Sequence record: KY963424
Reading direction: 5' to 3' (one strand)
DNA: 64,000 nucleotides
Origin: Shigella phage SSP1
The position numbers and the translations under genes were made by a program. The notes under the pieces are model-generated. The model was given only the letters and a program-made list of their open reading frames with translations. It had not been told where the DNA came from and did no database searches. Below, piece after piece: positions 4,458 through 26,364 of the stretch (positions are counted from its first letter, which is position 1; each line of letters opens with the position of its first letter).

Positions 4458-4802
4458 ATGACTATATTACTAATTCTTATTACAACTTGGTTTTTAATCG
4501 GTGCTGGATATGCTATAGCTATTATTAGACATTTGGACGAATACTCTGCTGAATGGTTTGTTAAGTATCTACGTATTGATAATCAAGAACATGAGTTTAA
4601 AGATGAAAAGCAGAAAAAAGCAGTAAATAATATGACAGCCAAAGAATGCTTGTTCTACATGCGTATTGTAGGGTTCTTTGGACTATTAGTTGCTGGCCCA
4701 ATTGGTTCTACCATTGCTCCATATAAAGAAACAGTTGCTGACATCAAATTGTGGAGAAATGCAGGGGTACTACGCAAAGCTAGAGAAACTAATATTATAT
4801 AA
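4458..4802 (+). CDS. hypothetical membrane protein
   Basis: ATG with GGAG RBS; TM segments ILLILITTWFLIGAGYAIAII and IVGFFGLLVAGPIG. Confidence 0.5.
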   Translation: MTILLILITTWFLIGAGYAIAIIRHLDEYSAEWFVKYLRIDNQEHEFKDEKQKKAVNNMTAKECLFYMRIVGFFGLLVAGPIGSTIAPYKETVADIKLWRNAGVLRKARETNII

Positions 4803-4925: not shown

Positions 4926-4956
4926 ATGTTTATAGATTGAGGCAAGAGGATTAAAT

Positions 4957-5637
4957 ATGAAAATCATCTCTAAATTCGTAGATGTGTATGATTTGCAGAA
5001 CAGTTTATTTGACGCAGATCGTGTTTGGGAACGTAAAACTGAAGAGCTAACAATAAAAGCCCCAGATGATGGCAACTATATGATCATGCAAGAACGTAGG
5101 ATTGCTCGTATTGAGGGGAAGATTGGCTACTTTAAAATTTTGCCTTTCTTCCTAGCTGGGGAGATTTACTGGTTATACCACATTGATGTACTGGATACCC
5201 AAGTAAAAACCTTCAGTCTGGACAAGGCGTTAGAAATTTTAGATGAGAAGGGATGGTCAACAGGGTTTTCTTTGCTAGACATAAACAGAGGGAAGCCAAA
5301 AGAGTCGATCTTATCGTGGCAAGAAGAAGTTACCCCGAAAGCTAAAGAAGCCTTATCTGAGCTAAGAGTACCGCTAGCAGTTCTAGATTCATTAGTTCCA
5401 AATGATAAAGATAACAATAAATACTTCAAGATTATAACTAATCCGCGTCTACACCTATCAGGTATTCCGTGGCAGGAAATTGAAAGTAACTTATACCGTT
5501 TACACCAGATGATCGAGCAATATATCTGGGGCGTGTTAGGAACCGGTGAACCAAATACTATTACGATTTCCGATAAGGATCGCTTAGCTGCACATGGATT
5601 TGATACTGTTACTTCTTTTAGGAATATGAAAAGATGA
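4957..5637 (+). CDS. hypothetical protein
   Basis: 226-aa ORF downstream of promoter. Confidence 0.55.
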   Translation: MKIISKFVDVYDLQNSLFDADRVWERKTEELTIKAPDDGNYMIMQERRIARIEGKIGYFKILPFFLAGEIYWLYHIDVLDTQVKTFSLDKALEILDEKGWSTGFSLLDINRGKPKESILSWQEEVTPKAKEALSELRVPLAVLDSLVPNDKDNNKYFKIITNPRLHLSGIPWQEIESNLYRLHQMIEQYIWGVLGTGEPNTITISDKDRLAAHGFDTVTSFRNMKR

Positions 5638-20002: not shown

Positions 20003-20160
20003 ACGAATGATAATAAGAATCATTCTCATTTAAAAAGCGGAATGAGAATGATAATAATTCGCATTTAGAAAGTGAAATGAGAATCAATCTCATTTAAAAA
20101 GTGGAATGATTCTCATTTAGATAGTGGAATGCAAATGATAATGATTCGCATTTAAGAACG
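20003..20160 (+). repeat. tandem array of degenerate AT-rich palindromic repeats (AATGAGAAT...ATTCTCATT / TGATAAT cores)
   Basis: About five tandem units each ending CATTTA(R)AAAG; extra copy at 20491-20512; resembles Fur-box-like GATAAT arrays. Confidence 0.6.
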
Positions 20161-20161
20161 G

Positions 20162-20295
20162 AAGTGAGAAACACTGTTATTTAAGTTATCCACAGACTTA
20201 TCAACAGCACGATTTGACTTGACAAAACCCTAGCCATTTTGAAGCGTTATTAACAGACTTATCCACAGCTTATCCTACTGTATAAATATACAGTA
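20162..20295 (+). repeat. left arm of about 135-bp imperfect inverted repeat carrying DnaA boxes
   Basis: Reverse complement of 23553-23686 aligns with few mismatches; TTATCCACA at 20186-20194 and 20259-20267, TTATCAACA at 20198-20206. Confidence 0.8.
20276..20295. promoter_or_regulatory. LexA (SOS) box-like palindrome TACTGTATAAATATACAGTA
   Basis: 19 of 20 matches to E. coli LexA consensus TACTGTATATATATACAGTA. Confidence 0.55.
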
Positions 20296-20550
20296 TTCCT
20301 ACGCAGTGAATAATTCTAATATAGCGTTAAAACGCTCTCAAACGCATTCTAACGCGTTTAATTTTGGTGGGGATACTAAATCAAGGGCAAAATTGAAGGA
20401 GGCTTGAAAATTAGTTAGCGCGCTAACGATCACACAAGGCGACACGTAACACCCGAATCATTAGCAGGCTAACCATCGCGGGCGCGGTCAAATGAGAATG
20501 ATTATCATTTGAAAATTGGGGCACTTCCAGATAGTTGCGCCCCGTGATTA

Positions 20551-24286: not shown

Positions 24287-24314
24287 TTGCTAATAATTTT
24301 GATATAATATAATA
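24287..24314 (+). promoter_or_regulatory. sigma70 promoter (TTGCTA-N16-TATAAT)
   Basis: -35 24287-24292, -10 24309-24314, upstream of HNH gene with AGGAG RBS. Confidence 0.5.
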
Positions 24315-24342
24315 ACCAAATGAAACTAATAGGAGAATACTA

Positions 24343-24684
24343 ATGATTGAACTAACAAAAGATATTGATTTAGAAACCGTACTAGATAACCTTTACTATG
24401 ATGAAACTAGTCCTAGTTGCCTACGGTGGAAAGTATCCCGCCCCGGTTGCGCCCTTCATGGGGTAGCAGGTACTAAACGGAAGGATGGCTATTGGTCTGT
24501 TCAACTAAATAAAGAGCGTTATCTTGCGCATCGTATTGTGTGGTTACTATTTAATTATAAAATAGATAGCAAACTAGTAATTGATCATATTGATCGTAAT
24601 CCTAGTAACAATTTTATTGATAACTTACGGTTAGTAACTCAAGCCGAAAACAACCAAAATAAAGGAGAGTATAGAAAGGCGTAA
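24343..24684 (+). CDS. HNH homing endonuclease
   Basis: LAHRIVWLLF...IDHIDRNPSNNFIDNLRLVTQAENN HNH_3 motif; AT-rich relative to neighbours. Confidence 0.75.
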   Translation: MIELTKDIDLETVLDNLYYDETSPSCLRWKVSRPGCALHGVAGTKRKDGYWSVQLNKERYLAHRIVWLLFNYKIDSKLVIDHIDRNPSNNFIDNLRLVTQAENNQNKGEYRKA

Positions 24685-24804
24685 AATTTACATTTCTTTA
24701 CAAATATAAGGTTGCGCCTTTTTCGTTATTTGTTATTATTTATCTCGTAGGGCGGCAATGACGAACTACACGGCGGGAAGTTTACCGCCGCGCTCTTTAA
24801 AAAT

Positions 24805-24828
24805 TGGGTATATCTTAAAGCCTATCGG
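24805..24828 (+). repeat. left copy of 24-bp inverted repeat TGGGTATATCTTAAAGCCTA(T/C)CGG
   Basis: Reverse complement of 25075-25098 with one mismatch. Confidence 0.8.
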
Positions 24829-24862
24829 CGGTAAACTTATTACATTATAAGGAATCGACGAT

Positions 24863-25066
24863 ATGAAACAAACTTTATTGATCACTGGTAAACCTAGCAA
24901 GGCACTGGATAGCAAAACAAAAAATTTATTGACAGTAGCGCAAAGATCGGTAAAATATCGATTTGAGCAGTACAAGAAAGGCCGCCAGCAAGGTTTAGAA
25001 ATGATCTGGCGAAATATTATGATCGACCTGAAGGAAAATCATAAAAAACTGCAAAAAATAGTTTGA
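24863..25066 (+). CDS. hypothetical basic 67-aa protein flanked by inverted repeats
   Basis: ORF with AAGGAA RBS lying between the two 24-bp repeat copies. Confidence 0.45.
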   Translation: MKQTLLITGKPSKALDSKTKNLLTVAQRSVKYRFEQYKKGRQQGLEMIWRNIMIDLKENHKKLQKIV

Positions 25067-25074
25067 CAACATAG

Positions 25075-25098
25075 CCGGTAGGCTTTAAGATATACCCA
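25075..25098 (-). repeat. right copy of 24-bp inverted repeat
   Basis: CCGGTAGGCTTTAAGATATACCCA is reverse complement of left copy. Confidence 0.8.
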
Positions 25099-25296
25099 GT
25101 TCGATAAGAGCGATAACTTGATACAATTTGACGGTCGGTACTTACCATAATGTGCCCCGCCCCCTAACTGGGATATAGCGGCCCGCGTGGAGTTCCTTAA
25201 ATTGATTTTATAATGGCGAGCGGATTTTTTCTTATTACCTGTTATTTTCCAGCAGGTAATGCGGAACAATCCCCTAAATAACTTGGAGTTTATACC

Positions 25297-25548
25297 ATGA
25301 AAAACGTTATTACCGCGCCTAAAATTGGTCAATCTGTTTTCATCCCTTTCGTTACTAAAACGGATGAATTAACCGGAAAAGCCGAACGTATTAAAGGCGC
25401 GGCGCTCATGCCGTTCGATACAATCGATGCGGTATACGCTGAAACAGAACGCAGTAACAACGGCAAGCCGATTTATAACGTTCGCGTTAAATCTGGCGAC
25501 GTTGTAAAGGTTGTTCAACGCAACGAAAAATGGGAAGCCGTTTTATAA
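25297..25548 (+). CDS. hypothetical pre-early protein
   Basis: ORF preceded by conserved leader CCCCTAAATAACTTGGAGTTTATACC. Confidence 0.55.
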   Translation: MKNVITAPKIGQSVFIPFVTKTDELTGKAERIKGAALMPFDTIDAVYAETERSNNGKPIYNVRVKSGDVVKVVQRNEKWEAVL

Positions 25549-25562
25549 TTTAGTGTTAACTT

Positions 25563-25590
25563 TATATGCCCCAGTAGTTCGGGGCATATA
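25563..25590 (+). other. GC-cored hairpin without U-tract (pre-early intergenic punctuation)
   Basis: 10-bp stem TATATGCCCC/GGGGCATATA with 8-nt loop. Confidence 0.6.
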
Positions 25591-25646
25591 ACGATTAACA
25601 TTATGTTAATCTTATCCCTTAAATTAAATTAATTGGAGTTTATATC

Positions 25647-26054
25647 ATGACTAACGTTAAAGCCGCAAAATTCACCTGGAACGAAGAAAACACCCAAAAA
25701 GCTGTTACCATGTATCAGCAGTTAATCAATGAAAACGGATTAGAATTCGCAAACAGCGACGGCCTGAAAGAGATTGCGAAAGCAGTGGGCGCGACTTCTC
25801 CCGTGTCAGTTCGTTCGAAATTGACCAGCGCGAAAGCCTATCAAAAAAGCGATAAGCCTCGCAAGGTTGGCGGCGGTAGCTCAATCCGCAAGGCTCATTA
25901 TGTGCGAGTAATTGCAAGACACGCCATCGATTCCGGCATTATCAAAGACGCCGATGATCTGGCAAGCCTTGAAAGCGCGAAGCTGGAAACGCTGGACGCC
26001 GTGGCGCAGTTGTTAGGCGTTGCCGATGAGGTGAAACAAGCCGCAGGCGAATAA
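25647..26054 (+). CDS. hypothetical pre-early protein
   Basis: ORF preceded by leader CCTTAAATTAAATTAATTGGAGTTTATATC. Confidence 0.55.
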   Translation: MTNVKAAKFTWNEENTQKAVTMYQQLINENGLEFANSDGLKEIAKAVGATSPVSVRSKLTSAKAYQKSDKPRKVGGGSSIRKAHYVRVIARHAIDSGIIKDADDLASLESAKLETLDAVAQLLGVADEVKQAAGE

Positions 26055-26109: not shown

Positions 26110-26307
26110 ATGATCTTTTACCCCACTGAATCGCTCATTCTAGGCTTATTTATTATGGCGGCCTCGTTATTGTTCGCATATTTTCAAAATGATTTAGATT
26201 CGTATTATTTTAAACGCAAATCTAAGTTAGCGAAGCGTTTGGGCCTGATTTGTTTTATTGCCGCCGTTGCTTGTGGTGTTAGTTCTAGCCTGATGCCGAT
26301 TAGTTAA
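26110..26307 (+). CDS. small two-TM membrane protein (pre-early)
   Basis: ATG after TTGGAGTTTTTAAA leader; hydrophobic LILGLFIMAASLLFAYF and LGLICFIAAVACGV. Confidence 0.5.
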   Translation: MIFYPTESLILGLFIMAASLLFAYFQNDLDSYYFKRKSKLAKRLGLICFIAAVACGVSSSLMPIS

Positions 26308-26319
26308 ATATTGCAAATT

Positions 26320-26345
26320 ATAACGCCTATTATTGGAGGCGTTAT
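26320..26345 (+). other. intergenic hairpin
   Basis: Stem ATAACGCCT/AGGCGTTAT. Confidence 0.55.
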
Positions 26346-26347
26346 AT

Positions 26348-26364
26348 TTGGCAATATTTGCCAA
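26348..26364. promoter_or_regulatory. 17-bp palindrome TTGGCAA-TAT-TTGCCAA (operator-like)
   Basis: Perfect 7-bp half-sites, located about 40 bp upstream of A1 start. Confidence 0.4.

Follow-up and report, generated by a model that had tools for sequence, protein, structure and literature searches.

Why should the leader of a small phage gene carry an inverted copy of the promoter that follows this gene? The question, which seems not to have been asked before, is raised by a locus of Shigella phage SSP1 (record KY963424), of which a single stretch of 64,000 nucleotides (nt), read 5' to 3' and called the window below, was analysed. The locus lies in the terminal-repeat, first-step-transfer (pre-early) part of this T5-like phage, in an orientation reversed relative to the T5 record, and consists of a short basic open reading frame (ORF), hdi, that stands between the two arms of an inverted repeat. 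The right arm is at the same time the core of the downstream promoter P-D/E20. Our answer, to which we assign a probability of about 0.55, is that the two arms form a long-range helix in the pre-early mRNA, with hdi enclosed.

An inverted repeat, a gene and a promoter core

The left arm (24805-24828) reads TGGGTATATCTTAAAGCCTATCGG, and the right arm (25075-25098), which repeats it in inverted form, reads CCGGTAGGCTTTAAGATATACCCA. The sole mismatch between these 24-nt arms opposes T24825 to G25078, which in + strand RNA is a U·G wobble. In this the sequence agrees with a preliminary description of the same stretch, which had reported a 24-base-pair (bp) inverted pair with one mismatch at this place. 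It had also let the pair precisely flank the ORF; the flanking is correct, but the fit is loose, with 34 nt between the end of the left arm and the ATG of hdi and 8 nt between the stop codon and the start of the right arm. The inverted pair extends to 24791-24829 and 25074-25112 (39 nt, 85% complementary), and within it a 28-bp core helix with two G·U pairs is separated by a 4x4 internal loop from an outer helix of 7 bp (coordinates in Table 1). Allowing up to three mismatches, the 24-mer has two sites only in the whole window and no match in dinucleotide-shuffled windows (0/100 shuffles). Between 19000 and 30000 the arms are by far the strongest long-range inverted repeat, apart from those of the injection stop signal, and outside the latter no comparable further unit was found in this interval.

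The right arm comprises the spacer, the -10 hexamer and the discriminator of P-D/E20 and terminates at the predicted start A25098. In a consensus scan this promoter agrees with 10/12 consensus positions, and its -35 hexamer contains or overlaps the stop codon of hdi. It aligns with the T5 segment so annotated at 4664-4738 in AY692264, which is the "T5P1" of AY587007, and its partial overlap with hdi has been described (bioRxiv 10.64898/2026.04.02.716235). A second promoter, P-H22, lies inside hdi and thus between the arms; it agrees with 11/12 consensus positions, and its homologue is annotated in the T5 records NC_005859 and AY692264. Both are counted among the strongest promoters of Escherichia coli, and the locus could not be cloned because of its two strong promoters (2026 preprint). 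Upstream of the unit there is a candidate sigma-70 promoter, whose hexamers are conserved and whose spacer is variable among relatives, including Sugarlandvirus and a Yersinia phage. It scores below the threshold of the consensus scan and carries no annotation in the T5 records, and is a prediction only; the T5 records do annotate promoters farther upstream of the unit. A scan of 24300-25700 gave no terminator-like site, and hence none between the arms.

The basic 67-amino-acid (aa) ORF of the preliminary description, at 24863-25066, was likewise confirmed, with a net charge of about +11. Judged by homology it is hdi, the counterpart of T5.008: it is 88% identical to the T5.008 protein and matches the profiles PF24188 (DUF7416; E value 2.8e-36, above the cut-off) and phrog_4718 (E value 1.9e-40). 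A metagenome scan for Hdi relatives added only 13 close ones. For the T5 protein it was shown experimentally that Hdi inhibits host division via FtsZ, that it is toxic if expressed alone and that it is dispensable for infection (PMC10714956). The order of genes, with an HNH endonuclease (24343-24684), the 67-aa ORF, a T5.007 homologue (25297-25548), A2 (25647-26054), a small membrane protein and A1, places hdi upstream of T5.007-A2-A1 in synteny with T5, Spc35 and Shivani, and at the place homologous to the Shine-Dalgarno sequence of hdi the Shivani record annotates a ribosome-binding site. Over 24687-25600 the sequence does not differ from that of Salmonella phage Spc35 (100% identity), and the locus has matches in 494 phage records.

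Complementarity and enclosed genes among relatives

When RNA of the segment 24750-25125 is folded, the minimum-energy structure includes the long-range helix (-118 kcal/mol, z = -9.85), and none of 100 shuffles was as good. RNAalifold, applied to 17 relatives, independently returned the same helix, together with the outer helix and two hairpins of the leader. In a fold of the isolated 5' untranslated region (5'UTR) the left arm is mostly unpaired.

For a comparison on a broader basis, the unit was gathered from about 100 loci (numbered with the prefix L below), which gave 27 distinct arm haplotypes. In these, 96% of the cells are paired and 7 pairs are changed on both sides, and all five measures exceed those of 500/500 shuffles; the haplotypes are related by descent, and these covariation figures are counts, not probabilities. 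Several changes can be followed individually. At helix position 7 the variants C-G, U·G and U-A occur, and C·A never does. In Epseptimavirus two pairs are altered on both sides, in L020 an extra A in the left arm is matched by an extra T in the right one, which amounts to a compensated 1-bp insertion, and in the DT57C-like L257 the -10 hexamer is changed from TAAGAT to TAAAAT with a matching change in the left arm. Phage misterkot has a 42-nt repeat with just two G·U pairs.

A helix in + strand RNA should leave G·U rather than A·C mismatches. If only isolated mismatches are counted, under strict rules, 10 types are G·U and 5 are A·C (p = 0.15); every G·U variant is present in 33-54 loci and every A·C variant in 1-3. 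A looser count, which relied on a loose promoter pattern and also took in internal loops and stray repeats, gives 26 against 14 (p = 0.04); the stricter count is the weaker one. This excess favours pairing in + strand RNA, in a way that is suggestive and not decisive.

Among Tequinta-, Epseptima-, Sugarland- and Myunavirus relatives the sequences of the arms change and their complementarity is kept, always at the same locus. In the Sugarlandvirus Spivey the arms are very different in sequence and nevertheless pair, and here too the right one is the core of a promoter (TTGACA-17-TATTAT). Pectobacterium phage My1 carries two units in tandem and L271, a distant relative, three; each of these units has an arm sequence of its own, and its right arm has a -10-like hexamer and ends near a predicted start. 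Folding of the L271 polycistron gives three successive panhandles with single-stranded GCUCUUUAAAAA linkers between them (z = -10.3). Across units, arm lengths are 23-42 bp and arms are spaced 140-440 nt apart. The family-wide complementarity with compensatory change is in our view as directly established as are the repeat, the identity of the gene and the overlap with the promoter.

The enclosed genes vary while the arms stay. There may be hdi alone, a gene X alone, X together with an hdi-like gene, or an extra ORF together with hdi. In HK6 and Gostya9 a different gene of 58 aa (X) replaces hdi, and in UTK0009 and Spivey two genes are enclosed, with about 410 nt between the arms. In L020 (1341-1497) and L032 (1346-1502) an extra ORF of about 51 aa (MQTIYNDHPATHDTIEKIEQW...) stands between the ribosome-binding site of hdi and hdi itself, and the start-codon region is found duplicated at both junctions. 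The X family (...TVEQAEAVI.FCANH...YHHKDG...) comprises L052 823-999 (HK6), L053 819-989 (Gostya9), L054 998-1171 and L055 1118-1285, and within the same arms its members either replace hdi or precede an hdi-like gene.

A further element accompanies the units of Epseptima-, Sugarland- and Myunavirus-like phages. The motif GCTCTTTAA(A/C/T)AA(T)TTGG occurs there as a direct repeat, with copies immediately in front of every left arm and 0-20 nt beyond every right arm (L034 1418-1432 and 1757-1772; L055 1047-1063 and 1535-1551; L109 763-778 and 1068-1083; L271 475-488, 784-797 and 990-1003). It has one occurrence in the window, and in the folds successive panhandles are joined by it as unpaired RNA. 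It might serve as an RNase E-type site or be bound by a protein, or it might be a scar left by recombination.

Probable pairing in RNA and other explanations

The preliminary description had offered pairing between the two ends of a transcript, with a long stem as the result, as one of three uses of the repeat, and this is the one that we favour, as it is complementarity and not sequence that is kept across four genera and in tandem units. At the spacing of the arms no cruciform extrusion is possible, RNA is the natural medium of pairing, and complementarity under selection in arms that are unrelated between units argues against one sequence-specific protein that binds both arms.

RNA that comes from upstream, be it from the predicted promoter or from the farther ones annotated in T5, would carry both arms. 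In such RNA the left arm, situated in the 5'UTR of hdi, would pair with the transcribed core of the promoter that follows, the outer helix would add its 7 bp, and the result would be a panhandle with the hdi cistron in a closed loop of about 245 nt. RNA started at P-D/E20 would begin where the right arm has its 3' end and so form no helix, and RNA started inside hdi at P-H22 would have the right arm only. As neither of these transcripts has both arms, the duplex should exist only in read-through RNA. We infer from the conserved complementarity that this pairing occurs.

Ribonuclease III (RNase III) needs a duplex of roughly two turns, which the arm lengths fit. A near-continuous duplex of at least about 20 bp, as would be looked for in an RNase III helix, is present here in the 28-bp core with its 7-bp outer helix, and the pairing has been kept up in evolution with G·U tolerated, the tally against A·C being suggestive only. 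The near-perfect 28-bp duplex is therefore a probable substrate of the host RNase III. Cleavage would detach the mRNA of the cassette from the essential downstream A2-A1 message and would leave the 5' end of the downstream RNA beside the start of P-D/E20, and the cassette mRNA might retain paired ends. Our confidence in this RNase III step by itself is lower than that in the helix as a whole.

A number of points weigh against a helix in RNA. The upstream promoter and all start sites in the window are predictions, and the excess of G·U is modest when distinct types are counted (10 against 5, in sequences that share descent). In Gostya9 and DT57C-like phages complementarity is down to 82%, with two A·C mismatches tolerated. 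The conservation of the right arm is partly explained by promoter constraint without any role of RNA. Ribosomes and co-transcriptional folding could block a helix that has to close a loop of 245-440 nt. No literature was found that links RNase III to T5 pre-early RNA, and whether cleavage would stabilise or limit the hdi mRNA cannot be told from the sequence.

The helix may also have another job in which RNase III is not key. It could be a long-range terminator or insulator with respect to P-D/E20 read-through, or a translational device that acts by proximity of stop and start or keeps a toxic mRNA inert in the manner of hok. All the evidence for pairing counts for this possibility as well, and the toxicity of Hdi and of several other pre-early products would suit it, as would the geometry, in which about 20 nt separate the base of the helix from the ribosome-binding site and 8 nt separate it from the stop codon. 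In misterkot-type phages and in unit 2 of L271, U-rich sequence follows the right arm (UAGUUUUUAAAG, UUUGAUUUGUGCUCUUU). In the window and in T5, however, no U-tract follows it, and an intrinsic terminator was rejected on the outcome of the scan of 24300-25700. Loops of 140-440 nt would moreover make poor terminator hairpins. A duplex of at least 23 bp would be cut by RNase III in enterobacteria whatever its other role. We consider it unlikely that the helix serves such a purpose instead of processing.

It is similarly improbable, and the next in order, that the arms act at the level of DNA, as ends of an exchangeable or once-mobile module with terminal inverted repeats and an outward promoter, and are kept by the movement or recombination of modules as blocks and not by RNA pairing. 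Genes have indeed been swapped or added within a constant frame of left arm, Shine-Dalgarno sequence, promoter and right arm, tandem units exist in My1 and L271, and in the window an HNH endonuclease gene adjoins the unit. In My1 the sequence CGCTCTTTAACAA(G/T)TT abuts both ends of unit 1 in the manner of a target-site duplication, and in Epseptimavirus and Sugarlandvirus this motif precedes the left arm and recurs 15-20 nt beyond the right one. Yet each genome has a single copy at a locus that is always the same, and in the window, where the flanks CGCTCTTTAAAAAT and GTTCGATAAGAGCG are inverted, the direct-repeat flank is absent. Searches of 5,426 E. coli genomes, of 72,556 plasmids and of bacterial contigs brought up no copy, a pattern scan of the contigs giving single matches in unrelated taxa only, at about the rate of chance. 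No transposase or recombinase is evident, the HNH endonuclease alone adjoining and the rest of the window not having been screened, and with arms wholly different between units no single enzyme could recognise them all. Mobility alone also leaves the fine-scale compensatory changes and the bias towards G·U unexplained.

The miniature mobile element of the preliminary description fares no better: of its usual marks the terminal inverted repeats are present, whereas a target-site duplication in the window, multiple copies or sites, and copies in bacteria or plasmids were not found. The same description had named, as a finding that would count against it, the presence of repeat and ORF at one and the same site in every relative, without indications of mobility or regulation. 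This is what was found as far as mobility is concerned, and it is not what was found for regulation.

We regard it as very unlikely that the repeat is a functionless inverted duplication of the promoter core, generated for example by template switching during replication and kept alike by occasional intramolecular conversion. Template switching does occur at this locus, as is seen in L006 and L019, where the leader has hairpin B in exactly inverted form, and the right arm would be conserved as a promoter in any case. Against this stands the persistence of the repeat across subfamilies with many compensatory changes, as well as the shared geometry of units with independent arms, which are consistently at least 23 bp long and have a right arm that consistently ends at the predicted start site.

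Least probable among the explanations considered at length is that the arms are paired operators, the third use proposed in the preliminary description. A bound protein would loop the DNA and shut P-H22 and P-D/E20, perhaps in the A1/A2-dependent shut-off of pre-early expression. A site over the spacer and -10 hexamer of P-D/E20 is a classic operator position, the loop would enclose P-H22, the shut-off needs A1, and A2 is annotated as a DNA-binding protein. But instead of one recognition sequence across relatives, the arms of Tequintavirus, Sugarlandvirus and Myunavirus are unrelated, and even the two or three units of one genome have different arms, each complementary to its own partner, which would call for a different protein per unit. 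The left arm furthermore tracks neutral changes in the discriminator and -10 hexamer of the promoter, and individual arms are not palindromic. An invertible promoter switch of the fimS or hin type, for which inverted repeats around a promoter-bearing segment could be taken as a sign (P-H22 lies between the arms), was rejected, as the flipped inter-arm segment was covered to at least 80% in 0/466 phage records.

Returning to the helix in pre-early RNA, a wider proposal can be formulated, which we put forward tentatively as a possibility that is more doubtful than the helix itself: the pre-early regions of Demerecviridae would consist of exchangeable "anti-promoter" cassettes, in whose 5'UTR 23-42 nt form the complement of the following promoter's core and end at the start site of that promoter. 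If this design is true, the phage could treat read-through and promoter-initiated RNA differently, by RNase III insulation or by end protection. In a radical version the RNA of the 5'UTR may pair with the non-template strand in the open complex of the downstream promoter. Should pairing in RNA work, it would be a compact insulation of small, toxic and exchangeable host-takeover genes from the essential A2-A1 message, and the same bases would be a promoter in DNA and a processing signal in RNA. How T5-like phages can exchange pre-early cassettes and leave expression undisturbed would then be explained as well. For the engineering of T5-like therapeutic phages the unit is a defined element to mutate.

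The surrounding locus and known systems

Table 1. Features of the hdi unit and its leader (window coordinates; all on the + strand).
Feature	Position	Strand	Remarks
Candidate sigma-70 promoter upstream of the unit	24712..24739	+	TTGCGC, 16-nt spacer, TATTAT; predicted start about 24747
Conserved 5' leader	24747..24804	+	hairpin A, hairpin B, motif CGCTCTTTAAAAATT; single-sequence fold and RNAalifold consensus
Hairpin A	24747-24769	+	leader folds
Hairpin B	24771-24776 / 24785-24790	+	CGGCGG / CCGCCG; leader folds
Alternative local hairpin, 13 bp perfect	24778..24838 (24778-24790 with 24826-24838)	+	35-nt loop holds most of the left arm
Motif CGCTCTTTAAAAATT	24791-24805	+	leader; occurs once in the window
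Outer helix, left strand	24791..24797	+	CGCTCTT; pairs with 25106-25112; in relatives U·G in several, one C·A (L004)
Left arm, long-range helix	24802..24829 (preliminary description: core 24805-24828)	+	5'UTR of hdi
Shine-Dalgarno sequence of hdi	24849..24854	+	AAGGAA; partly within small conserved hairpin CUUAU/AUAAG
hdi (T5.008 homologue), 67 aa	24863..25066	+	host division inhibitor by homology to T5.008
P-H22, inside hdi	24929..24956	+	TTGACA, 16 nt, TAAAAT; predicted start about 24963
P-D/E20	25063..25091	+	TTGACA (25063-25068), 17 nt, TAAGAT (25086-25091); predicted start about A25098
Right arm, long-range helix	25074..25101 (preliminary description: core 25075-25098)	+	spacer, -10 and discriminator of P-D/E20
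Outer helix, right strand	25106..25112	+	AAGAGCG; repeat search, fold, consensus fold

The leader in front of the left arm is itself highly conserved. A stretch of about 80 nt (window 24734-24805; L055 987-1067), which runs from the -10 hexamer of the upstream candidate promoter to CGCTCTTTAAAAATT, is 97.5% identical between the Klebsiella Sugarlandvirus Spivey and the Tequintavirus of Salmonella and E. coli, and the T5.007 proteins that adjoin this leader are just 58% identical between Spivey and Tequintavirus. Either the two-hairpin leader is ultraconserved or it was recently transferred. A T5.009-like ORF of 30 aa (24758-24850) lies wholly within the leader and the left arm. It has no PHROG or family match and is conserved at the nucleotide level, and we treated it as leader and probably not as a gene; T5.009 is present in fewer than 15% of Demerecviridae genomes (preprint). 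In L006 and L019 hairpin B (CGGCGGGAAGTTTACCGCCG, window 24771-24790) is swapped for its exact reverse complement, a clean inversion of the template-switch type. The perfect 13-bp local hairpin listed in Table 1 was considered as a conserved switch and rejected, as it is lost in these two loci, with their inverted hairpin B, and in several Epseptimavirus and Sugarlandvirus; it is probably lineage-specific.

Downstream of the unit, the 199-nt leader that leads from P-D/E20 to T5.007 has two hairpins (25128-25160 and 25236-25270) with compensatory changes among relatives, of the forms GGYRC...GYRYC and TTACCTG...CAGGTAA, the latter becoming ATCTG/CAGAT. This leader is mostly replaced by unrelated sequence in Epseptimavirus, and its single-sequence fold is unexceptional (z = -1.3). 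The translation-initiation regions of T5.007 and A2 (25275-25316 and 25625-25666) are 81% identical over 42 nt (TAAATAACTTGGAGTTTATACCATGA...), which suggests a shared or duplicated ribosome-binding module. Across the listed start of the A1 ORF (26333), an inverted repeat of 23 nt with an 8-nt loop (26306-26359; AAATATTGCAAATTATAACGCCT / AGGCGTTATATTTGGCAATATTT; 91% complementary) could regulate the translation of A1. Scans for tRNA and tmRNA genes and for Rfam families gave nothing at the locus (whole window at the gathering threshold, 24650-25350 at E values of up to 5).

Directly upstream of the repeat unit, the HNH_3 homing-type endonuclease gene (24343-24684, 113 aa) belongs to a stretch that is covered by only 13 of the 494 matching phage records and is absent from Spc35. 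This place, which in T5 is taken by a different HNH gene (hegG), looks like a hot spot for endonuclease insertion. Farther upstream, dense direct and inverted repeats of the AATGAGAATGAT type fill 20006-20516, where the injection stop signal of the terminal repeat is probably located.

The gene, the promoters and a bare annotation of the repeat are already known. In the T5 record AY587007 (strain ATCC 11303-B5) the same feature is entered at the homologous site as "inverted repeat A / A'" (4682-4706 and 4950-4974), and the "putative pre-early promoter T5P1" of that record includes arm A; the entry gives coordinates only, with no function, RNA reading or comparison attached. No literature that discusses repeat A/A' or gives it a function was found, and Davison's preprint covers the repeats B, C and D only. 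What appears to be new is that throughout the family compensatory changes have maintained one design, a pre-early cassette whose 5'UTR is the complement of the core of the following promoter.

Several known systems resemble parts of this design. In the RNase III stalks of rRNA operons, the sequences that flank 16S and 23S likewise pair over a long range, enclose the gene product and are long enough for RNase III; the T5-like unit differs in that it encloses a small mRNA, in that its 3' strand doubles as a promoter core, and in that cleavage is here a proposal. The early RNase III sites of T7 are similar with regard to the substrate, as in the T5-like unit, too, an early polycistronic RNA, made by the host polymerase from strong tandem promoters, would be cut into gene-sized mRNAs. 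The T7 sites, however, are local intergenic hairpins with an internal loop, whereas the T5-like helix is long-range and brackets a cistron. Long-range or read-through-specific structures that control a toxic or dosage-sensitive gene are known from the fbi/tac fold-back of hok and from lambda sib (int), and in the case of sib the likeness goes further, as the structure exists only in transcripts from one promoter; in contrast to these systems, the T5-like unit comes without an antisense RNA partner or evidence for translational silencing, and its geometry differs. With regard to cassette exchange, there is a likeness to the T4-type PeSL (promoter-early stem-loop) cassettes, which Arbiol et al. 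reportedly described in 2010 as framing small early ORFs with repeated promoter-containing modules, the ORFs being shuffled between relatives and some genomes having tandem arrays. PeSLs are direct repeats of a local stem-loop and a promoter, whereas each T5-like unit has an inverted repeat of its own that spans the gene.

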